64,000 nucleotides of DNA from contig CAWCAG010000005.1 of assembly GCA_963793425.1 (NCBI GenBank), forward strand, positions 1,408,001 to 1,472,000, read 5' to 3'. Numbering within the stretch: position 1 is the stretch's first letter; each line of letters opens with the position of its first letter. This document shows positions 1 to 8,406 of this stretch, piece after piece. Source of the stretch: an uncultured cyanobacterium. GTDB taxonomy: Bacteria > Cyanobacteriota > Cyanobacteriia > Cyanobacteriales > CAWCAG01. The translations under genes were made by a program, and so were the position numbers. Under the pieces are notes generated by a model. The model made no database searches, was not told the origin of the DNA, and worked only from the letters and a program-made list of their open reading frames with translations.

Positions 1-3000
1 CTATGGTTTGAAAGCAGATTTGGACAAATGTTTACAGCAATTGAAAAAAAAGGGCGAGATTGAAGTTTTTCCCCTTGCTCAACGAGATATTTCTGATAAA
101 TTTCAAATTCCTCAAAAGTTATATGGCAGAGAGGCAGAAATAGATGCCTTATTGGCAGCTTTTGAGCGTACAAGCAAAGGTATTCCCCCGAATCATCTTT
201 CTACCGGAGGAGTAGAAATGATTCTGGTTGCTGGTTATTCTGGAGTTGGTAAATCGGTTTTAGTTAATGAGATTCACAAACCTATTACCGCCAAAAGAGG
301 TATTTTTATTGCGGGAAAGTATGAACAATATCAAGGAAATATCCCTTATTTTGCTATTTCCCAAGCTTTTAATGAATTTTGTAATCAACTATTAAGTGAA
401 AGTCCAGAAACTTTAAAAATTTGGCGAGAAAAAATTCTGACAGCAGTAGGAAACAACGGTCAGGTTTTAATTGAAGTAATTCCTGAATTAGCTTTGGTGA
501 TTGGACAGCAGCCTCCCTTAGCTCAAGTTAGCCCTCAAGAAGCACAAAACCGTTTCCATCTTGTCTTCCAAAACTTTGTTAAAGCGATTAGCCAAGCAGA
601 AAATCCCCTTGTTTTGTTCTTAGATGATTTGCAATGGGTAGATACAGCTTCTTTAAAATTGTTGAAGCTCTTAATGAGTGATAAGAGCTATCGCTATCTT
701 TTAATTGTGGGAGCCTACCGAGTTAATGAAGTAGATGCTACTCACCCTCTTAAAATTGCTTTAGATTCAATTGAAGCTGAAAGTGGCGTTATTTCCTCGA
801 TTCACTTAAAAAACCTGACTAAAACTGATGTTAATACTTTGTTAACAGAAGCTTTGAATTGTGAGCCGGATTATAGCCAGTCTTTAGCTGATTTAGTTTA
901 TAAGAAAACTCAAGGTAATGCTTTTTTTACTAAGGAATTTTTAAAGTCTCTTTACGAGTCTGGCTTATTAACATTTGAATTTCCTAGTATTTCTTTACTG
1001 GTGACAGGACAAAGTAAAGGTGGCTGGCAATGGAATGTCAGTCAAATTCAAGCTGAGAATATTACTGATAATGTCGTGGAGTTAATGGCGGACAAAATTT
1101 GCCATTTAGATACGGAAACTCAAACTGTATTACAGTTAGCTGCCTGTATTGGTAATAGCTTTAATCTCTCTTTATTAACCCAGCTTTATCAAAAGCAGTA
1201 TCAAGTTAAAACAGCTACTTCTCAGTCAATACTATCTGATCTCTGGCAGGCTTTGCAAGAAGGTTTAGTTGTTCCTTTAAATGAGCAGTATAAGTTAATT
1301 AATACCGAATTGTCTGGAGCAAGCAAAGAAGAGAAAATCAATTTTAATCAATTTAAAAGAGCAATCTTTAAGTTCCAACACGACCGTGTTCAACAAGCAG
1401 CTTATGCCTTAATTTCTCCTCAGAAAAGACAACAGAAAATCCATGTCCAGATTGCTGATTTACTGTTAGAAAATACTCAGCCAGAAGAGCTAGAGGAGAG
1501 CATTTTTGATATTGTTAATCAATACAATGAAGGATTGAGCTTAATCGAAGTAGAAAAAGCCATGGAGCTAGCCAGACTGAATTTAAAGGCTGGTAAAAAG
1601 GCTAAGGTGGCTACAGCTTATGAACCGGCGGTTAAATATCTAAATATTGGTCTAGATTTATTAAGTGAGCAGAGTTGGCAAACTGAATACGATTTAACTT
1701 TTGCTTTGCATATAGAAGCAATAGAAGCTGAATACTTAAATACCAACTTTGAGCAAGCCAAATTTCTTACTGATATTGTTTTAAGTAATGCTAATACTGT
1801 ATTAGATAAAGTCAAAGTTTACGAAAATCAAATCCTCTTTTATATTACTCAAAATGAACAGCAAACTGCTATTCATATTGGCTTACGAGTACTGGAGATG
1901 TTGGAGGTTTCTCTTTACGATTCTCCTCCCCCAAACTTGGATATTAACAAGTTAGCTAGCTTGCCAGAAATGGCTGATCCAGATAAGTTGGCAGCTATGC
2001 GAATCTTGATGACTATTGCGGTTCCTGCTTACATTGCTAATCCGACAATGTTACCGCAAATTTTGTTTACGATGATTGATTTATGCGTCAATTATGGTAA
2101 CTCGCCTTCAGCACCTGTAGCCTATGCTTTTTATGGTTCCTTGCTTTGTACCATGTTCTCAGATATAGAGACAGGTTATCAATTTGGGCATTTAGCTTTA
2201 GAAGTATTAGAAAAGTTTGCGACGAGGGAAATAAAATGCAAAGTAGACTATTTATTTAATTCTTTTATTTTTCATTGGAAAGAATCTGCTAATTCTGCCA
2301 TAGAACCATTACGAGAAACTATTCAAGTAGGTTTAGAAACTGGAGATATTGAATTTGCTTGTTATGGTGCTGTGGAATATTGTTCCAATCTTTTGTTATT
2401 AGGACAGCCTTTAGATTATATTAGCCAGCAGCATCAACAATATATTGATTTGATTAGGAAAAATAAGCAAGGATATTCTTTAGCTTACGTAAAAATCTGG
2501 AGCCAGTTGGTTGAAAGTTTAAGAGGTAATTCAGAAAATCAACAACAATTAGTTGGAGAAGAATTTGATGAAGTAACGATGTTGCCAAGGTTACTTCAAA
2601 CTAATAACTTAAACTTAGTTTTCCAGGTTTATTTAGCTAAAACTATTTTAAGTTACTTATTTAAAGACTATTCAGCAGCCATGACCCATGCTTCTTTAGG
2701 AGCCAATTATGAGCCTTCTGTAGTGGGTTTATTTAATGTTGCTCAGCATAACTTCTACTATTCTTTAGCTTTACTGGCTAACTGTACTAAAAATAATGAA
2801 AGTAGGAAAGAGCAGTTTTTAAAGAAAGTTGTTGCTAATCAACAGAAAATGAGCATTTGGTCTAACCATGCTCCGATGAATTTTTTACATAAATATGAAT
2901 TAGTAGAAGCAGAAAAAGCACGAGTTTCAAATCAATATTGGCAAGCCGCAGAACTTTATGAAAATGCTATCAAAAACGCTAGGGAATCTGGCTATACTCA

Positions 3001-4624
3001 AGATGAAGCCTTAGCTTATGAGTTGGCCGCAGAATTTTATTTAAGTCGTGGCATGGCAGAAGTTGGGCAGCTTTATATGACAAAAGCTCATTACAGCTAT
3101 CAACATTGGCAAGCTACCGCTAAAGTAAAAGATTTGGAAAAGAGGCATCCTCAGTTGTTTTCTTCAACTCCTATAGTTCCTAATAAGCTTAAAAATAACT
3201 CTACAATCGCGACAACAGATCCTTCTAACCTTTTAGATATAACCAGTGTTCTTAAAGCTTCTCAAGCATTAGGTAGCGAGATTGTTTTAGACAAATTGCT
3301 GACGCGAATGATGAAAATTGTGATAGAAAATGCGGGGGCAGATAGGGGCTTTCTTTTATTAAATAAATCTGATGGCTGGGTAATTGAAGCCATGGGAACT
3401 ATTGGTGAAGAAAAAATTACCATAGAACAATTACCATTAGAAGATGCTCAACAGCAATCTCGCTTACCTAAAACTATTATTAATTATGTAAGTCATACTC
3501 ACAAAAATCTTGTCTTAGGAGATGCTGTTCAGGTGGGTGCTTTCACCCAAGATCCCTATATTATAAGTCATAAACCTAAATCAATTCTCTGTACACCTTT
3601 ACTCAACCAAGGAACATTAGTAGGTATTGTTTATTTAGAGAATAGTTTGATTGCAGAAGCTTTTACCCCAGATCGCTCAGAGCTTCTCCATTTACTTTCT
3701 TCTCAAGCTGCTATTTCTCTAGAGAATGCCCGCTCCTACAGCCGTCAAGTGGAACTGACAGATTCCTATAGTCGTTTTGTTCCCGCTGAGTATTTAGAGT
3801 TTTTGCAAAAGAAAAGTATTACCCAAGTAAAGTTAGGGGATCATGTTAGTAAAGAGATGGCAGTGATGTTTTCTGATATTCGCTCCTTCACTGCCATTTC
3901 TGAAAATATGACTCCCCAAGAAAACTTTGATTTTGTCAACAATTATCTTAGGGAAGTAAGTCCCAAAATCCGTGGCAATGATGGTTTCATTGTTAAATAT
4001 TTAGGGGATGGGATGATGGCTGTTTTTCCGAATGGGGCTGACAATGCTTTAGCGGCCGGAATTGCTAAACTGCAACAGGTGGAAATATATAATCGTCAGC
4101 GTCAAGAAAATAACCAACCTCCGATTAAAGTAGGAGTTGGCATACACGTTGGTCATATGATGGTAGGAATGGTGGGAGAAACTGCCCGTATGCAAGGAGA
4201 TGCTTTTTCTGATAATGTCAATCTCACAGCCCGTTTAGAAAGTTTGACTAAGTTCTATGGTGTTTCTTTAGTGATTAGCGAGACTACGAAAGAAAGGTTG
4301 AGCAATCCTCAGCAATATAAAATACGTTTCCTTGATAAAGTTATTCTTAAAGGTAAGAAAAATCCTATCGCCATTTTTGAAGTATTAGATGGCAACAACC
4401 CAGAGGATATTGCAGCTAAGTTAGCAACTCAAGGAGATTTTGAAAAAGGTTTGGAGTGCTATCGTTTAGGGGCAGTAGCAGAAGCAGAAGGCTACTTTAA
4501 GCAAGTTTTAACCAGCAACCCCAATGACAGTGTTTCTCAGCTTTATTTGGAGCGAGTAGAGGAACTTAAAAAAGAAGGTGTACCTAAAAATTGGGATGGG
4601 GTTTGGAGTTTGAAGCGGAAATAG
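1..4624 (+). CDS. 5'-partial multidomain protein: STAND/AAA ATPase, helical repeats, GAF, class III adenylate/guanylate cyclase (an N-terminal Ser/Thr kinase probably lies upstream of the window)
   Basis: Frame is open from the window edge (YGLKADLDKC). Walker A GYSGVGKS, Walker B LFLDDLQWVD, FQHDRVQQAAY, GAF region (SILCTPLLNQGTLVGIVYLEN), cyclase motifs MFSDIRSFT, KYLGDGMM, DNVNLTARLES. Confidence 0.9.
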   Translation, partial: YGLKADLDKCLQQLKKKGEIEVFPLAQRDISDKFQIPQKLYGREAEIDALLAAFERTSKGIPPNHLSTGGVEMILVAGYSGVGKSVLVNEIHKPITAKRGIFIAGKYEQYQGNIPYFAISQAFNEFCNQLLSESPETLKIWREKILTAVGNNGQVLIEVIPELALVIGQQPPLAQVSPQEAQNRFHLVFQNFVKAISQAENPLVLFLDDLQWVDTASLKLLKLLMSDKSYRYLLIVGAYRVNEVDATHPLKIALDSIEAESGVISSIHLKNLTKTDVNTLLTEALNCEPDYSQSLADLVYKKTQGNAFFTKEFLKSLYESGLLTFEFPSISLLVTGQSKGGWQWNVSQIQAENITDNVVELMADKICHLDTETQTVLQLAACIGNSFNLSLLTQLYQKQYQVKTATSQSILSDLWQALQEGLVVPLNEQYKLINTELSGASKEEKINFNQFKRAIFKFQHDRVQQAAYALISPQKRQQKIHVQIADLLLENTQPEELEESIFDIVNQYNEGLSLIEVEKAMELARLNLKAGKKAKVATAYEPAVKYLNIGLDLLSEQSWQTEYDLTFALHIEAIEAEYLNTNFEQAKFLTDIVLSNANTVLDKVKVYENQILFYITQNEQQTAIHIGLRVLEMLEVSLYDSPPPNLDINKLASLPEMADPDKLAAMRILMTIAVPAYIANPTMLPQILFTMIDLCVNYGNSPSAPVAYAFYGSLLCTMFSDIETGYQFGHLALEVLEKFATREIKCKVDYLFNSFIFHWKESANSAIEPLRETIQVGLETGDIEFACYGAVEYCSNLLLLGQPLDYISQQHQQYIDLIRKNKQGYSLAYVKIWSQLVESLRGNSENQQQLVGEEFDEVTMLPRLLQTNNLNLVFQVYLAKTILSYLFKDYSAAMTHASLGANYEPSVVGLFNVAQHNFYYSLALLANCTKNNESRKEQFLKKVVANQQKMSIWSNHAPMNFLHKYELVEAEKARVSNQYWQAAELYENAIKNARESGYTQDEALAYELAAEFYLSRGMAEVGQLYMTKAHYSYQHWQATAKVKDLEKRHPQLFSSTPIVPNKLKNNSTIATTDPSNLLDITSVLKASQALGSEIVLDKLLTRMMKIVIENAGADRGFLLLNKSDGWVIEAMGTIGEEKITIEQLPLEDAQQQSRLPKTIINYVSHTHKNLVLGDAVQVGAFTQDPYIISHKPKSILCTPLLNQGTLVGIVYLENSLIAEAFTPDRSELLHLLSSQAAISLENARSYSRQVELTDSYSRFVPAEYLEFLQKKSITQVKLGDHVSKEMAVMFSDIRSFTAISENMTPQENFDFVNNYLREVSPKIRGNDGFIVKYLGDGMMAVFPNGADNALAAGIAKLQQVEIYNRQRQENNQPPIKVGVGIHVGHMMVGMVGETARMQGDAFSDNVNLTARLESLTKFYGVSLVISETTKERLSNPQQYKIRFLDKVILKGKKNPIAIFEVLDGNNPEDIAAKLATQGDFEKGLECYRLGAVAEAEGYFKQVLTSNPNDSVSQLYLERVEELKKEGVPKNWDGVWSLKRK

Positions 4625-4767
4625 TTGTTCACATAAATAGCACCGGAAACACCATCACCTGGAAGTAATGACTCATTTGCAGCGTCAACAATTACGTCCA
4701 CTTTTTGATGTGTGATATCTCCCTGTTGTATCTCTATTTGCTCTTTAATTACTTTTGTCTCTACCAT
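4625..4767 (-). pseudogene. Truncated macro-domain (ADP-ribose binding/hydrolase, YmdB-like) gene
   Basis: ATG at 4767 preceded by GGGAGG. Translates MVETKVIKEQIEIQQGDITHQKVDVIVDAANESLLPGDGVSGAIY (macro N-terminal GDIT...AAN...G.GV..AI motifs), then similarity ends at the cyclase stop. Confidence 0.8.
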
Positions 4768-4969
4768 CAGGATATTCCTCCCTAAATCTCTGGAGAATAG
4801 ACTTATCAGTTGCTTCGTAGACAATAGAATTTTTTTGTCCAAGGACAGGCTTAATATGCTTGACTTCACCTGAAACTATGGGAAGGGGGATTGGCTCAGA
4901 TGCAAATGCAGCGCAGGAGCCATCAAATTGAAAGTGCTTGCAGTATTTGCATCCTTTATATTCTGCCAT
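4745..4969 (-). CDS. Small Cys-rich putative metal-binding protein, phage-like
   Basis: 74 aa with pattern CKYCKH...CAAF...IP..I..G...H..P..GQ.N.IVYE; overlaps the start of the macro gene. Confidence 0.65.
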   Translation of the reverse strand: MAEYKGCKYCKHFQFDGSCAAFASEPIPLPIVSGEVKHIKPVLGQKNSIVYEATDKSILQRFREEYPDGRDKSN

Positions 4970-5006
4970 TAAATTGTCTTTCTTCGTGTAGTTACAGATT
5001 GTTCAA

Positions 5007-5090
5007 TGCGATCGCCTATTTTATTTCGATTAATTCTGGTGGGCAAAGATAGATGAGTTTCTGAAGCTAATTCAACGACTGAATCTTGCC
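5007..5090 (+). repeat. Direct repeat A, copy 1 (HIP1 followed by a REP-like GGTGGGCAA...TTGCC hairpin)
   Basis: 84 bp matching 8314-8397 with 2 mismatches by manual alignment. Confidence 0.95.
5008..5015. repeat. HIP1 octamer GCGATCGC (representative copy; dispersed through the window)
   Basis: Also at 5218, 8114, 8315, 13928 and many coding positions; hallmark of many cyanobacterial genomes. Confidence 0.95.
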
Positions 5091-5216
5091 AACCTATTAG
5101 TAATTGATTTGCTATTAGACATATTATGATGGGCAAATAAATAATAAATTTGATTGTCCATCCTAACGAAGGTATTTTGCCCACCCTACCTAAAAGCTTG
5201 AGATATACCATCTGAA

Positions 5217-5253
5217 TGCGATCGCATTCATTAAAGCTTGCCAGAGATAAAGT
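5217..5253 (+). repeat. Direct repeat B, copy 1 (HIP1-anchored, 37 bp)
   Basis: TGCGATCGCATTCATTAAAGCTTGCCAGAGATAAAGT versus TGCGATCGCATTTATCAAAGCTTGCTAGAAAAAAAGT at 8113-8149; 5 mismatches. Confidence 0.85.
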
Positions 5254-5304
5254 CAGATTAGTTCGTTGGCTTGAGTAAATATAGTCACATGGAAGAACTT
5301 AAAG

Positions 5305-5559
5305 ATGAAGAATAGTGCGCCTCTGTTAGTTGAAGAAACAAACCTCTCGCGTATGTGGGCTACTGTATTTCTGCATATTATTGATAATTCTGGAAAAGAG
5401 ATTTCGCCACTTATAGTAACTTTAACGGGCTTGACATTTGGGCGTATGAACTGTTTCGTTGGTGTAGCAAAGCTAGATACCATCACTAAATCAGATGATA
5501 GTTTAACTACTCTCAAAAAGGTAGCTCGAAATGCGCTGCCCTCAACTACTAACGAATAA
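5305..5559 (+). pseudogene. Internally deleted thymidylate-synthase-like gene remnant
   Basis: N-terminal part (PLLVEETNLSRMWATVFLHIIDNSGKEISPLIVTLTG) joined in frame to a C-terminal-like part (LTFGRMNCFVGVAKL). Resembles, from memory, the TS-like genes preceding aGPT-Pplase1/MazG pairs; only 84 aa. Confidence 0.5.
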
Positions 5560-5578
5560 ACAGTAGAGGGAATACAAC

Positions 5579-6706
5579 ATGAAAACTAAACCTCAGAAAC
5601 ACACAACTAAAAATGCTCAGCAACACAAACAACTAAGTCTTGACTTTGGCCAATATGATTCTGAACAAAGCTCAACACCAAAGATTATTTCATATCTTCC
5701 TGGTGCTAAGCCTACAATTGTATTCAACACTTACTGGCGATTTGCTGCTGAACGGCAAAAAGTATTTTTCAAAAAGTTAGAAAATGCCCCAATACCTTGG
5801 ACTGACGACCCAATTGTTTCAACCTACAAGTTTACCAATGCTTACCGCGCTTCAGATCGTGTAAGCCAGTATTTGATCCGTAATGTCATTTACCAGAATG
5901 ATCTGCCATCATCATCTAACGAGGTATTCTTTAGGATTATCCTTTTCAAAATATTCAATAAGATCGAGACTTGGCAGCTTTTAGAAAAAAAGCTTGGTTC
6001 CCTTGTTTACGCTGAATATTCCTTTGAACGCTATGATCAAGTTCTCACAGAGGCCATTCAGTCAGGCCAAGCTATCTATTCTGCTGCATACATAATGCCA
6101 TCAGGAGGAACAAGCTTTGGACATATAGCGAAACATCGTAACTACCTCAAGCTAATCGAGAAAATGATGGCTGAGGAGCTACCAAAAAAGCTTGCTGATG
6201 CCCAGAATATGCAGCAAGGATTCGATTTGCTGCGAGGATATCCAACTATTGGCGACTTTTTGGCTTATCAGTTTATTACTGATGTTAACTATAGTGAAAT
6301 TACGAACTTTAGCGAAATGGATTTTGTGATTCCTGGCCCTGGGGCGCTAGATGGTATTCGTAAATGCTTTAGTGATTTGGGCGGACTGAGCGAACCAGAA
6401 ATTATAGAGCGCATGGGAGAGAATCAAGAGTCTGAGTTTGAGCGACTAGGACTGAATTTTCAGTCTCTCTGGGGAAGAAGGCTACAATTGATTGATTGCC
6501 AAAATCTATTTTGCGAGGTCGATAAATATGCTCGCATGAAACATCCCGGTATTGCTGGAATATCAGGTCGCTCTCGTATCAAACAAAAATACTCAGGTAA
6601 AGGACAATTTCTAGATTTCTGGTATCCACCTAAATGGGGAATTAATCAGGCTATTGAAAAATACAAAACAGTTGCTAAAGTTCATACTCCGTTGAAGTCT
6701 AAATAG
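5579..6706 (+). CDS. 5-hmdU DNA kinase helical-domain protein (aGPT-Pplase1 family)
   Basis: YWRFAAERQ...PWTDDP...YKFTNAYRASDRVSQYLI, LFKIFNKIETW, YSAAYIM, GDFLAYQFITD, GPGALDG, DCQNLFCEVDKY. Confidence 0.85.
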   Translation: MKTKPQKHTTKNAQQHKQLSLDFGQYDSEQSSTPKIISYLPGAKPTIVFNTYWRFAAERQKVFFKKLENAPIPWTDDPIVSTYKFTNAYRASDRVSQYLIRNVIYQNDLPSSSNEVFFRIILFKIFNKIETWQLLEKKLGSLVYAEYSFERYDQVLTEAIQSGQAIYSAAYIMPSGGTSFGHIAKHRNYLKLIEKMMAEELPKKLADAQNMQQGFDLLRGYPTIGDFLAYQFITDVNYSEITNFSEMDFVIPGPGALDGIRKCFSDLGGLSEPEIIERMGENQESEFERLGLNFQSLWGRRLQLIDCQNLFCEVDKYARMKHPGIAGISGRSRIKQKYSGKGQFLDFWYPPKWGINQAIEKYKTVAKVHTPLKSK

Positions 6707-6715
6707 AATCTCAAG

Positions 6716-7594
6716 GTGTCAAGCATGGATTTTCGTGAATATCAGGAACAAGCCCAAAAGACGGATCAAGTTCCCGGTAAAGAAGGAAAAGGAATAACTG
6801 TACCTCTGTTGGGCTTAGTTGGAGAAGCAGGGGAATTGCTCAGTGAATACAAAAAGTACTTACGGGACGGAGAAGCCCATAGGCTTTTTCCAGAACGTGC
6901 TGCCGAAGAGTTGGGGGATATGCTTTGGTATATTGCCAATTTATCTAGCAAGTTTGATCTTAGTCTGGAAAAAATTGCTGAAGACAATATTGAGAAAATA
7001 TTTGATCGTTGGGGATGGAAAAATTCACTACAAACACAGATACACATATTTGACAGTAATTTTCCTGGAAATGAGCGTTTACCACGTCAGTTTGATGTTG
7101 ATCTCACAGAGGTAAACGGAAACAACTCCGTAAAAATGAGAGCATTTGTCAACGGAAAACAAATTGGTGACGACCTCACTGATAATTCTTACTCAAACGA
7201 TGGTTATCGCTTTCATGATATTTTCCATCTTTCCTATGCCGCAGTATTAGGGTGGTCACCAGTCATGCGTCGCAATCTTAAATGTAAGCGAAAAAGTGAC
7301 CCTAGTATTGATGAAGTAGAAGATGGCGGTCGTGCGATCGCAATTGAAGAGGGTATATCAGCCCTTGTATTCAGCTATGCCAAAGACCATCAGTTTTTAG
7401 AAGGAGTTGATACTCTTGACTACCAGTTGCTCAAAACTATTAAAACTATGACTTATTACTTAGAAGTCTCTCAATGTTCCCTTGGTGATTGGGAAAAAGC
7501 TATCCTGAGTGGATACGAAGTCTGGCGAGAAATAGTAGAAAATGGAGGTGGGGAAGTGACTGTAAATCTTGATCAACGTACCTTAAGACGATAA
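6716..7594 (+). CDS. MazG-like nucleotide pyrophosphohydrolase with MazG_C domain
   Basis: GLVGEAGEL...EELGDMLWY (MazG fold); GDDLTDNSY..DGYRFHDIFHLSYAAVLGWSPV and DEVEDGGRAIAIEEG (C-terminal domain); 9 bp after the upstream gene. Confidence 0.9.
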   Translation: MSSMDFREYQEQAQKTDQVPGKEGKGITVPLLGLVGEAGELLSEYKKYLRDGEAHRLFPERAAEELGDMLWYIANLSSKFDLSLEKIAEDNIEKIFDRWGWKNSLQTQIHIFDSNFPGNERLPRQFDVDLTEVNGNNSVKMRAFVNGKQIGDDLTDNSYSNDGYRFHDIFHLSYAAVLGWSPVMRRNLKCKRKSDPSIDEVEDGGRAIAIEEGISALVFSYAKDHQFLEGVDTLDYQLLKTIKTMTYYLEVSQCSLGDWEKAILSGYEVWREIVENGGGEVTVNLDQRTLRR

Positions 7595-7612
7595 AAGTTT
7601 AAAGTTATTAAC

Positions 7613-8089
7613 TTAAGCTCGATAAAGCATAGGCTTTGTACTGCTTTTAAGATACAGTGGATGAAATGGACAGCCTCCTTGAGTGATTCCCAAACAGTAT
7701 AAGGGTTTAAAGCCAGTTATCCTCTCAAGAACATCCGTACAACGGTTCCTTAAAATGCCCCGATTTCCCCAAGCTACAATGATTTTATCTGCTGATTTAA
7801 CAGACTTTTCGAGGTAGCAATCATTTTCAGGTCCTACTGGATCTTTGACATTTTGCAGAGTTACTGGTTTTGAGGCCCGATAACCAAATAGGTTAACCAC
7901 TTCAAGGGAACCATAACCCCAAGACTGAGCGAAACCGATGCAGCGACGCAGGGTAGGATCATCCTTCGTTGCATCTGCGCGACTGGGGTTAAGCATAATA
8001 AAGGTGAGTTTAGGAGCATTTGTGTCCCATTCCCGCAAGAGCCAGTAGCGGTAGTATTCTGTTGAGTCTATTACTACATCTTTTATCAT
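7613..8089 (-). CDS. DUF1643 family protein
   Basis: YRYWLLREW...FIMLNPSRADATKDDPTLRRCIGFA..WGY..LEVVNLF...AWG...HPLY. Confidence 0.9.
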   Translation of the reverse strand: MIKDVVIDSTEYYRYWLLREWDTNAPKLTFIMLNPSRADATKDDPTLRRCIGFAQSWGYGSLEVVNLFGYRASKPVTLQNVKDPVGPENDCYLEKSVKSADKIIVAWGNRGILRNRCTDVLERITGFKPLYCLGITQGGCPFHPLYLKSSTKPMLYRA

Positions 8090-8112
8090 AGTTGCTTGTA
8101 AGATGGTGAAGT

Positions 8113-8149
8113 TGCGATCGCATTTATCAAAGCTTGCTAGAAAAAAAGT
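8113..8149 (+). repeat. Direct repeat B, copy 2
   Basis: Matches 5217-5253. Confidence 0.85.
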
Positions 8150-8313
8150 ATGAGTGCTTCATCCCTTCTTCAAACCACAACTAAGCTACCCCATAGCCTG
8201 TATAAGGGCGTTTATAACTTGATAGACTGCTTTAGCTTTTTTATATTTTTGGAAAGTAAAAAATTTAATAGCTCAGTATTAGTATACATATTAGTTGCCA
8301 CCTCTATCTTTAG

Positions 8314-8406
8314 TGCGATCGCCTATTTTATTTCGATTAATTCTGGTGGGCAAAGACAGATGAGTTTCTGAAGCTAATTCAACTACTGAATCTTGCCCAC
8401 CCTACG
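8314..8406 (+). repeat. Direct repeat A, copy 2, ending in REP-like TTGCCCACCCTAC
   Basis: Matches 5007-5090; internal inverted repeat GGTGGGCAA...TTGCCCACC. Confidence 0.95.

Follow-up and report, generated by a model that had tools for sequence, protein, structure and literature searches.

The thymidine hypermodification clusters of phages M6/YuA, ViI, PhiW-14 and SP10 were compared with the locus studied here, as described in the available parts of two papers (PMC5889632, PMC8989533). In those parts, the 5-hmdU DNA kinase of the phages is a separate P-loop kinase, the aGPT-Pplases are predicted to be glycosylase-like helix-hairpin-helix proteins, and M6 gp55 is dispensable for the in-vitro reaction (PMC5889632, PMC8989533). 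Judged by how the genes are arranged in YuA, a related phage, gp55 would be the HMUDK_hel-type (aGPT-Pplase1-type) paralogue. Among bacteria, the E. coli system DS-4 (‘NTTI’) comprises TS, an adenylate-kinase-like protein, HMUDK_hel, TIR and Nmad2, and its anti-phage activity was validated by phage plating in E. coli, as reported in the available text of PMC13092281. DS-4 HMUDK_hel is listed there as a stand-alone protein of 340 aa in which PF18723 covers residues 27–324 (PMC13092281, Tables S6-S8). The same paper (DefensePredictor) also names, in the text to its Fig. 6F, a predicted, unvalidated aGPT-Pplase/MazG/MazG-C defence system, and the legend lists ‘UDG’ and ‘HTH’ in addition without assigning them to a system (PMC13092281, accessible part). 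Judged by the shared domain names, this predicted system is probably the same cassette family as the one described below.

The window, i.e. the whole 64,000-nt stretch of DNA that was analysed, contains at positions 5305–8089 a segment that encodes, by its open reading frames (ORFs) and Pfam matches, proteins of the HMUDK_hel, MazG+MazG_C and DUF1643 types, the last from a convergent gene. Four genes had been called there in an earlier, sequence-only reading, and the ORF list, Pfam and alignment to relatives bore out all four. These are the remnant of a TS-fold gene, here called X (5305–5559, plus strand, 84 aa), a stand-alone HMUDK_hel gene (5579–6706, plus strand, 375 aa), a gene for MazG fused to MazG_C (6725–7594, plus strand), and the DUF1643 gene (7613–8089, minus strand, 158 aa), which is convergent with the MazG gene. 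The MazG ORF is open from a GTG at 6716 (6716–7594, 292 aa), and the true start is likely the ATG at 6725. At E ≤ 0.1, PADLOC-DB 2.0 (2023) contained no family matching any of five window proteins.

The 375-aa protein matched PF18723 with E = 6.8e-113 and 377.1 bits (cut-off 25), over residues 47–326 and profile positions 2–280 of 281, and is present in a single copy in the window’s genome. Its phage homologues are only 22–34% identical to it, and a sequence search of solved structures gave nothing usable. By Pfam the protein is the helical domain alone, with no P-loop domain, and it does not qualify as a 5-hmdU DNA kinase; the segment as a whole likewise had no P-loop kinase domain in the Pfam search. 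A fused Thymidylate_kin domain was found by Pfam in three relatives (L021, L038 and L061). The sequence-only reading had described this gene as ‘5-hmdU kinase-like’, a label that does not suit a protein lacking the P-loop domain that its relatives carry in fused form. That reading also treated phosphorylation of 5-hmU by the aGPT-Pplase1 family as established, a statement not borne out by the phage work, in the available text of which the kinase is the separate P-loop protein (PMC5889632, PMC8989533). For HMUDK_hel by itself, the name ‘kinase’ should be avoided.

The next protein matched MazG_C (PF18722, 1e-82, 276.8 bits vs a cut-off of 29.7), and its MazG match lay just above threshold (PF03819, 22.9 bits vs a cut-off of 22). 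Three acidic residues, E37, E64 and D68, which we take to be metal ligands, were invariant in 24 MazG sequences, and in profile searches the N-terminal part matched solved MazG-type and dCTP pyrophosphatase chains with E values of 2e-4 to 1e-2. Together the domain match and the conserved acidic residues identify the N-terminal domain, at the level of sequence, as a predicted all-alpha NTP pyrophosphohydrolase of the MazG type. For MazG_C, the ESM Atlas yielded no usable match.

Although the 84-aa ORF at 5305 had no Pfam match, it aligned to the first ~47 and the last ~36 residues of gene X, a gene of ~275 aa that immediately precedes HMUDK_hel in relatives. An in-frame junction connects the two ends, ~47 codons of the N-terminal part and ~36 of the C-terminal part, and the roughly 190 codons deleted between them include FPC(L)Q, a conserved cysteine motif. 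An AF2 model of an intact X homologue (pLDDT 91.7) gave MilA as its best Foldseek match (E 1e-8, probability 1.0), and thymidylate synthases occupied most of the top rows among 395 matches at E ≤ 1e-3. The same homologue matched TIGR03283 at 1.4e-9, below the family cut-off. In a profile alignment the FPC cysteine column of X fell on a cysteine of MilA that is presumably the catalytic one. These predicted-structure and profile matches place intact X in the thymidylate synthase / pyrimidine hydroxymethylase superfamily. The earlier term ‘TS-like remnant’ was therefore apt, because the ORF matches both ends of an upstream gene that in relatives has the TS fold.

The DUF1643 protein matched PF07799 at 6.2e-49 (165.9 bits vs a cut-off of 22.5) and had 608 homologues at E ≤ 1e-5. 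The DUF1643 domain is found widely, in phages too. Some Pseudomonas phages have it, and these were considered as possible members of the M6/YuA hypermodifying group; YuA, the one phage of that group checked, has no DUF1643. The domain has been described from staphylococcal cassette chromosomes and from an IS element as well, and two papers that mention it assign it no function in their available text. A sequence search of solved structures and the ESM Atlas gave nothing usable, and its AF2 model (pLDDT 88) had no Foldseek match at E ≤ 1e-3, a uracil-DNA glycosylase (UDG) appearing at rank 35 with E 0.07. With VIA-align, UDG alignments were among the longest in the list (121–132 of 158 residues, Z 5.4–6.1), but unrelated folds tied with Z up to 6.4, and profile comparison lent a DUF1643–UDG relationship no support (hhalign probability 0.6%). 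In a public protein collection DUF1643 is fused to two DNA methylase families, RNase HII, GIY-YIG-type domains and HTH, and these fusion partners act on DNA.

The proposal made from the sequence had raised the question whether DUF1643 is associated with such operons elsewhere, and this association was found in three forms. Among 80 loci related to the segment, 13 have a convergent DUF1643 gene. A co-directional HMUDK_hel-DUF1643-MazG/MazG_C operon is present at 5 of 29 other DUF1643 loci, all cyanobacterial and without matches to X, HTH or M78; the five belong to one family and three genera and are not independent, gene maps covering three of the five plus a fourth that is cut by a contig end, and Pfam one operon and flanking genes. 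Finally, a 630-aa ORF in one genome joins HMUDK_hel (residues 65–346) to DUF1643 (468–604), and a protein with both domains is present in the public collection too (P0123); the natural fusion predicts that the two proteins form a complex. In a sample of 301 genomes of the phylum, 56 have DUF1643 and nine have HMUDK_hel; DUF1643 is present in six of the nine, and in all six the two genes are adjacent.

The 80 related loci define a larger cassette, which in full form consists of a small ORF, an XRE-HTH gene, an M78 (ImmA/IrrE-like) peptidase gene, X, HMUDK_hel (in many cases with a P-loop dNMP kinase fused to it) and MazG-MazG_C, with AcpS-like, dCTP-deaminase-like (DCD-like) or DUF1643 genes often attached. 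The census counted X in 68 loci, M78 and MazG_C in 57 each, HTH in 56, the small ORF in 43, an AcpS-like gene in 24, a kinase match, usually fused, in 21, and DCD-like and TS genes in nine each; some of the loci end at contig ends, and assignments were confirmed by Pfam on example loci. The XRE HTH and the M78 peptidase head the operon in 56–57 of the 80 loci and are fused to each other in L038. None of HTH, M78, the small ORF or the core of X is present in the window. What remains intact and conserved in the window are the genes for HMUDK_hel, MazG-MazG_C and DUF1643; the regulators are gone, and so is the catalytic core of X. The sequence-only reading had not remarked that the window copy is the truncated remainder of a larger cassette with regulators.

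Identities of 57–82% link loci across cyanobacteria, Acidobacteriota, Pseudomonadota, Planctomycetota, Bacteroidota and Bacillota. PF18723 occurs in 3 of 41 relatives, the window’s genome included, and is not found in a genome of the same genus, in which the flanks of the segment lie on different contigs. With PADLOC, specific defence neighbours were seen at 6 of 23 loci and none at the other 17, as a raw count; the scan took the first 150 of 399 flanking proteins, which represent 23 of 58 dereplicated loci. The neighbours were pAgo with a Cas4-like nuclease (twice), a type IV restriction enzyme, NERD-UvrD, PDC-S17 and PDC-S70.

As the earlier reading had noted, the segment is bounded by repeats. 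Two 93-nt direct copies, 95% identical, lie at 5002–5094 and 8309–8401, and the left copy is hairpin-capable and contains GCGATCGC. They are not a unique pair: the repeat family has six matches in the genome, four of them further partial copies elsewhere with 76–88% identity. We considered the repeats as attachment sites of an integrated element and rejected this idea, since the family is dispersed and Pfam found no integrase or transposase family among the nine ORFs in 4543–8371. By eye, the genes next to the segment look like housekeeping genes, and what seems to be a truncated macro-domain ORF lies between the flanking genes along with the dispersed repeats. Independent unitigs from four sequencing runs of one study, three of the runs marked as a possible source of the window’s DNA, reproduce 5020–8343 including the deletion junction near 5445, which they cross without indels; in two runs a single 3324-nt unitig has 0 differences to the window. 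The Logan unitigs end at both repeat copies. A cyanobacterial origin is consistent with the 33 occurrences of GCGATCGC, presumably HIP1, against 0.14 expected, and with the closest related loci, which by identity comparison and a quick tree search (L001, L002 and L064 excluded, their extracted ranges having a stop) are likewise cyanobacterial.

Taking these observations together, we consider it probable that the segment derives, by partial decay, from a cassette of anti-phage type that is sporadic, has spread horizontally and acts on pyrimidine nucleotides and DNA bases. MazG would hydrolyse a (d)NTP, canonical or modified, and HMUDK_hel and DUF1643, the latter as a DNA-acting partner, would engage a base in DNA. 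In the full cassette, removal of the repressor by the peptidase would be followed by synthesis of a C5-modified pyrimidine nucleotide through X and the kinase; the window would retain only the pyrophosphatase and the DNA-acting half. Because the regulators and X are lost, the window copy may be silent or inactive. Other points against this reading are that PADLOC recognises none of the proteins, that 17 of the 23 loci have no specific defence neighbour, that the genes around the segment look like housekeeping genes by eye, and that M6 gp55, the putative phage paralogue, is dispensable in vitro. A defence role, one of the possibilities raised from the sequence, fits both the validated DS-4 and the predicted aGPT-Pplase/MazG/MazG-C system, as presented in the accessible parts of a 2026 paper (PMC13092281).

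An alternative is that the segment is inert, the leftover of a decayed mobile cassette whose ORFs are open only since the decay is recent, with no function in the cell. The gutting of X by an in-frame deletion is in keeping with this, as are a similar truncation in locus L001, the missing HTH, M78 and small-ORF genes, the lack of any intact X or X match elsewhere in the window’s genome, the dispersed repeats and the macro-domain ORF seen by eye between the flanking genes, and a promoter/terminator scan that did no better than shuffles (13 promoters found vs 11.2 expected). We nevertheless regard it as unlikely. The three ORFs have no frameshifts or stops, and every invariant residue is retained in their products: 71/71 positions in HMUDK_hel (invariant in 28 relatives), 54/54 in MazG-MazG_C and 34/34 in DUF1643. 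D258 is one of the conserved HMUDK_hel residues, and DUF1643 has the motifs NPS and HPLY. Values of dN/dS were 0.12–0.16, 0.11–0.14 and 0.28–0.32, respectively, and 0.15–0.18 for the X remnant although it is dead, dN/dS at these distances being blind to a recent loss of constraint. Moreover, other cyanobacteria have an operon of these three families that includes neither X nor regulators; retention of the trio does not depend on the lost genes.

A more elaborate form of the anti-phage reading, in which the cassette is an inducible ‘base-substitution’ immunity, is improbable as a whole. On infection, the M78 peptidase would remove the XRE repressor; MazG, the TS-like enzyme and the kinase would redirect the pyrimidine pool to a C5-modified dNTP; this dNTP would enter replicating phage DNA; and the physically coupled HMUDK_hel-DUF1643 pair would turn the modified base into lesions. 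The HMUDK_hel/DUF1643/MazG-MazG_C trio, as retained in the window and present in other cyanobacteria, would then be a stand-alone version directed against phages that bring their own modified pyrimidines. If this were true, DUF1643 would represent a new family of enzymes that process bases in DNA.

It is quite unlikely that the genes serve housekeeping, with MazG-MazG_C cleaning non-canonical or oxidised pyrimidine dNTPs and HMUDK_hel and DUF1643 removing lesions from the cell’s own DNA, e.g., 5-hydroxymethyluracil, an oxidised thymine. MazG-type enzymes are generally known to include house-cleaning pyrophosphatases, RNase HII and DNA methylases are among the fusion partners of DUF1643, and the window copy has no regulators. 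DUF1643 as such may have a housekeeping role, because in one cyanobacterial family of small genomes it is near-universal (12 of 13 genomes) and HMUDK_hel is present in none of the 13. However, HMUDK_hel and MazG_C are rare and patchy (9/301 genomes in one sample, 3/41 in another) and have spread across phyla at high identity, and the full form stands under XRE/M78 control beside a TS-like enzyme and a kinase, unlike core repair genes. Quite unlikely, too, is self-modification, in which the cassette would hypermodify thymine or another pyrimidine of host DNA for nuclease protection or marking: the full cassette does have phage-like parts (TS-like, dNMP-kinase fusion, pyrophosphatase, dCTP-deaminase-like, HMUDK_hel) with phage homologues located in thymidine-hypermodification clusters, but no aGPT-Pplase2-type transferase, PLP or radical-SAM enzyme was seen in the Pfam-scanned loci, inducible XRE/M78 control is a poor fit for a standing genome mark, and in the window, which has a dead TS-like enzyme and lacks a kinase, the pathway cannot start.

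The window copy itself is a degraded, unremarkable example; the interest lies in the family. HMUDK_hel has no assigned activity even in phages, yet is part of a validated E. coli defence system, as far as the available text goes (PMC13092281). It travels with MazG-MazG_C, and its linkage to DUF1643 recurs, in one case as a fused gene. The locus and its relatives give a concrete three-protein set for biochemistry, and a testable idea, that bacteria might use phage-style pyrimidine chemistry against phages.

How far, then, is this a ‘phage-type module’, as it was first called? The description holds in part. The HMUDK_hel family is shared with the phage clusters; MazG_C was not found among 50,697 phage records, in which five records matched the N-terminal MazG part only. 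In YuA, HMUDK_hel adjoins a P-loop kinase and a dUMP hydroxymethylase, and the full, ancestral bacterial cassette is similar in having a TS-fold gene and, at 21 of 80 loci, a dNMP-kinase match. Unlike the phage clusters, it is chromosomal and under XRE/M78 control, and in the Pfam-scanned loci neither a clade-2 transferase nor a PLP or radical-SAM enzyme was seen. The window, considered alone, has a mere remnant of the TS-like gene and no kinase or second Pplase ORF, and is not a phage hypermodification cluster. HTH and M78-peptidase regulator pairs such as ImmR/ImmA and CapH/CapP occur in mobile elements and defence systems; the full cassette has such a pair, the window has neither gene, and by analogy induction of the full cassette would be cleavage-based. 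Brig1-type DNA-glycosylase defences act against modified phage DNA and offer a model for how glycosylase-like HMUDK_hel and DUF1643 might act on phage bases. In domain content the cassette family resembles DS-4, which also has TS, a small P-loop kinase and HMUDK_hel in one operon; where DS-4 has a TIR protein and Nmad2 at its end, the partners in the window are MazG-MazG_C and DUF1643.

The segment represents a larger cassette in truncated form. Its three remaining genes are HMUDK_hel (PF18723, an aGPT-Pplase1-type protein of 375 aa; 5579–6706, + strand; Pfam E = 6.8e-113), a MazG gene with a MazG_C domain (PF18722; ORF 6716–7594, +; MazG_C 1e-82, the MazG domain barely over its cut-off), and DUF1643 (PF07799, 158 aa; 7613–8089, −; 6.2e-49). 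The MazG gene likely starts at ATG 6725, because relatives start at MDF and the ESM Atlas entry for this protein begins at that residue. PADLOC gave no match for the window's cassette proteins. On the left lies a 1540-aa multidomain gene (2–4624, +, open at the window start), whose C-terminal end has, by eye, GAF-like and nucleotide-cyclase-like regions; a GTPase-like gene runs from 8732 (−) on the right. Directly after the 1540-aa gene are two short ORFs without a Pfam match (4543–4869 and 4745–4969, both −): one opens like a macro domain, by eye, before continuing into the gene beside it, and the other is 74 aa and cysteine-rich. The sequence GCGATCGC, which we take to be HIP1, occurs 33 times in the window versus 0.14 expected, once within the MazG gene, an abundance compatible with a cyanobacterial origin.

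An 84-aa ORF upstream of HMUDK_hel (5305–5559, +) had been called a TS-like remnant in a sequence-only reading, and alignment to relatives bore this out. In relatives an intact gene of ~275 aa, here called X, lies directly 5' of HMUDK_hel; the ORF corresponds to the first ~47 and last ~36 residues of X, with ~190 codons, the conserved FPC(L)Q motif among them, deleted in frame. Relatives' X proteins had no Pfam match; X scored 1.4e-9 against an archaeal thymidylate-synthase model, under that model's cut-off, and its profile matched the CMP hydroxymethylase MilA weakly (E 0.019), with the cysteine column paired to a MilA cysteine. For the X of L033, a complete locus in a relative, the AlphaFold model (pLDDT 91.7) had MilA as its top Foldseek match (E 1e-8, probability 1.0), and thymidylate synthases filled most top rows of 395 matches at E<=1e-3. 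The remnant is thus a gutted TS-fold gene, and an intact X was not found elsewhere in the window's genome. Logan unitigs from four runs of one study (three of them a possible source) spanned 5020–8343 without indels, two of the runs as a single 3324-nt unitig with 0 differences; since independent unitigs reproduce the region, the deletion is not a genome-assembly artefact.

To describe the full cassette, the best 80 of 138 HMUDK_hel loci were kept. HMUDK_hel identity was 70–82% in many cyanobacteria and 57–69% in Acidobacteriota, Pseudomonadota, Planctomycetota, Bacteroidota, Bacillota and others. Searching with parts of L033 and three other loci (tblastn; some of the 80 loci are cut by contig ends), we found X in 68, the M78 peptidase and MazG-MazG_C in 57 each, HTH in 56, a 98-aa ORF in 43, an AcpS-like gene in 24, a dNMP-kinase match in 21, DUF1643 in 13, and a dCTP-deaminase-like gene and a classical TS in 9 each. 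In example loci Pfam confirmed HTH_3 and Peptidase_M78 (fused in L038), ACPS and DCD, Thymidylate_kin fused N-terminally to HMUDK_hel (L021, L038 and L061), and a TS in place of MazG (L061). The AcpS-type phosphopantetheinyl transferase gene, which exceeds the acpS model cut-off, accompanies the cassette in several phyla and is mostly convergent after MazG-MazG_C (among others L033 8049–8453, L038 8051–8458 and L043 7959–8354; these three −). One Bacteroidota locus (L076, 5357–7708) lacks MazG_C; there HMUDK_hel has a GNAT acetyltransferase on one side and, on the other, an AlkB-type 2OG-Fe(II) oxygenase in convergent orientation.

The window lacks the AcpS-like gene as well as the small ORF, HTH, M78 peptidase and X core, and a Coleofasciculus locus (L001) is truncated in a similar way. 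Such losses would suit an inert relic, but we regard this as unlikely, given that HMUDK_hel, MazG and DUF1643 retain every position (71/71, 54/54 and 34/34) that does not vary among 28, 23 and 35 relatives, respectively. Of the positions conserved at >=90% they retain 116/117, 97/97 and 49/50, and all three genes look intact. Against three relatives dN/dS was 0.12–0.16, 0.11–0.14 and 0.28–0.32, respectively; because the dead X remnant also scores 0.15–0.18 (77–84 codons), these ratios record old constraint and are no proof of present function.

The link between HMUDK_hel and DUF1643 is real and recurrent, as their association in such operons elsewhere shows. The 13 DUF1643 loci among the 80, all cyanobacterial, have a convergent DUF1643 gene 2.0–2.6 kb downstream of the HMUDK_hel start, and the genes past it vary between genomes. 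A quick HMUDK_hel tree, with L001, L002 and L064 left out, placed 11 of the 12 included convergent-DUF1643 rows, the window among them, in one clade of 12; its remaining member is L005, a locus ending inside MazG, and L024 fell elsewhere. Co-directional HMUDK_hel, DUF1643 and MazG/MazG_C genes occurred at 5 of 29 other DUF1643 loci in the phylum sample, from one family and three genera. Their HMUDK_hel formed a separate clade (support 100, quick tree); Pfam covered one of these operons plus flanking genes, and four of the five, mapped more widely (one contig-cut), had no X, HTH or M78 match upstream. The two domains are also fused, in a 571-aa public-collection protein (P0123) and in a 630-aa ORF of genome G004 (HMUDK_hel 65–346, DUF1643 468–604). 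After the latter come another HMUDK_hel, an AAA_28 protein and a pair of TS-like genes (cluster L170, G004:C89, 6391–14340); the TS-like proteins are long, and one has a pterin-binding DUF4346 domain.

Among 301 genomes sampled across the phylum, 56 had DUF1643, 9 had HMUDK_hel and 6 had both, adjacent in 6/6, the genomes being kin and not independent. One small-genome family carries DUF1643 in 12/13 genomes and HMUDK_hel in none, so DUF1643 is not tied to the cassette. That family would favour a housekeeping role in repair and sanitation, an improbable reading given the patchiness of HMUDK_hel, which also occurs in just 3 of 41 relatives, the window's own genome counted. PF18723 was not found in the same-genus genome G001, where the segment's two flanks lie on different contigs, which places the segment at a rearrangement point. 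The cassette family is patchily spread across phyla.

A 93-nt direct repeat flanks the segment (5002–5094 and 8309–8401, 95% identity). Four more partial copies lie elsewhere in the genome (contigs C7, C5 and C1; L083–L086), which marks it as a small dispersed repeat and not a unique end pair. The family is ~70–100 nt long, with window sites at 5002–5094, 5165–5189 and 8309–8405, and carries GGTGGGCAAAG ... CTTGCCCACC as an internal inverted repeat. A ~80-nt insertion sets the left copy apart from the others. Contigs from two runs connect 8384 to 5176, probably reflecting another repeat copy.

For DUF1643 itself, the consulted passages that name it assign no function. Its AlphaFold model (pLDDT 88) had no Foldseek match at E<=1e-3. 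VIA-align to uracil-DNA glycosylases gave Z 5.4–6.1 over 121–132 residues, among the longest alignments, with unrelated folds reaching Z 6.4; hhalign to a UDG alignment gave a probability of 0.6%. Other fusions, to N6/N4 and C5 DNA methylases, RNase HII, T5orf172/MUG113 domains and HTH (8 proteins, each on few contigs), point to DNA as its putative substrate.

We infer that the cassette family works in anti-phage conflict. In the available text of the DefensePredictor study (PMC13092281), the validated system DS-4 comprises a thymidylate synthase, an adenylate-kinase-like protein, a PF18723 protein (340 aa, named 'putative DNA base hypermodification protein'), a TIR protein and Nmad2; aGPT-Pplase, MazG and MazG-C are predicted, unvalidated defence domains, with Burroughs 2015 as the cited source, and the table of predicted novel defence genes includes two DUF1643 proteins. 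PADLOC on the flanks (150 of 399 proteins) gave specific defence neighbours at 6 of 23 loci, a raw share uncorrected for background. Directly 3' of the cassette, a class II prokaryotic Argonaute and a Cas4-like nuclease are intact in L021 (8144–11172) and in pieces in L032 (6820–8039). In the full cassette, XRE/M78 de-repression may be followed by production of a modified nucleotide by X and the kinase; MazG would hydrolyse a pyrimidine (d)NTP, and HMUDK_hel and DUF1643 would act on DNA bases. Self-modification, another alternative, also seems improbable.

The sequence-only reading saw a phage-type module and took the aGPT-Pplase1 family of phages to phosphorylate 5-hmU in DNA. The latter is not supported: in the available parts of Lee 2018 (PMC5889632) and Lee 2021 (PMC8989533) phage 5-hmdU DNA kinase activity belongs to a P-loop protein, the M6 reaction in vitro needs only gp54 (the kinase) and gp51 with gp55 dispensable, and aGPT-Pplases are predicted glycosylase-like helix-hairpin-helix proteins, clade 2 moving amino acids onto DNA. 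Pfam found in the window's HMUDK_hel the helical domain only (residues 47–326) and no P-loop domain; HMUDK_hel alone is not a kinase. Phage YuA encodes a putative kinase (gp13), an HMUDK_hel homologue (gp14) and a dUMP hydroxymethylase (gp17), an order suggesting that M6 gp55 is the counterpart of gp14; DUF1643 was not found in YuA. The phage-type label stands in part: the MazG_C part had no match among 50,697 phage records, 5 of which matched the N-terminal part only. DUF1643 matched 151 phage records (up to ~49% identity among the matches listed, all <60%), and phages do carry HMUDK_hel homologues, 489 records at 22–34% identity to the window protein.
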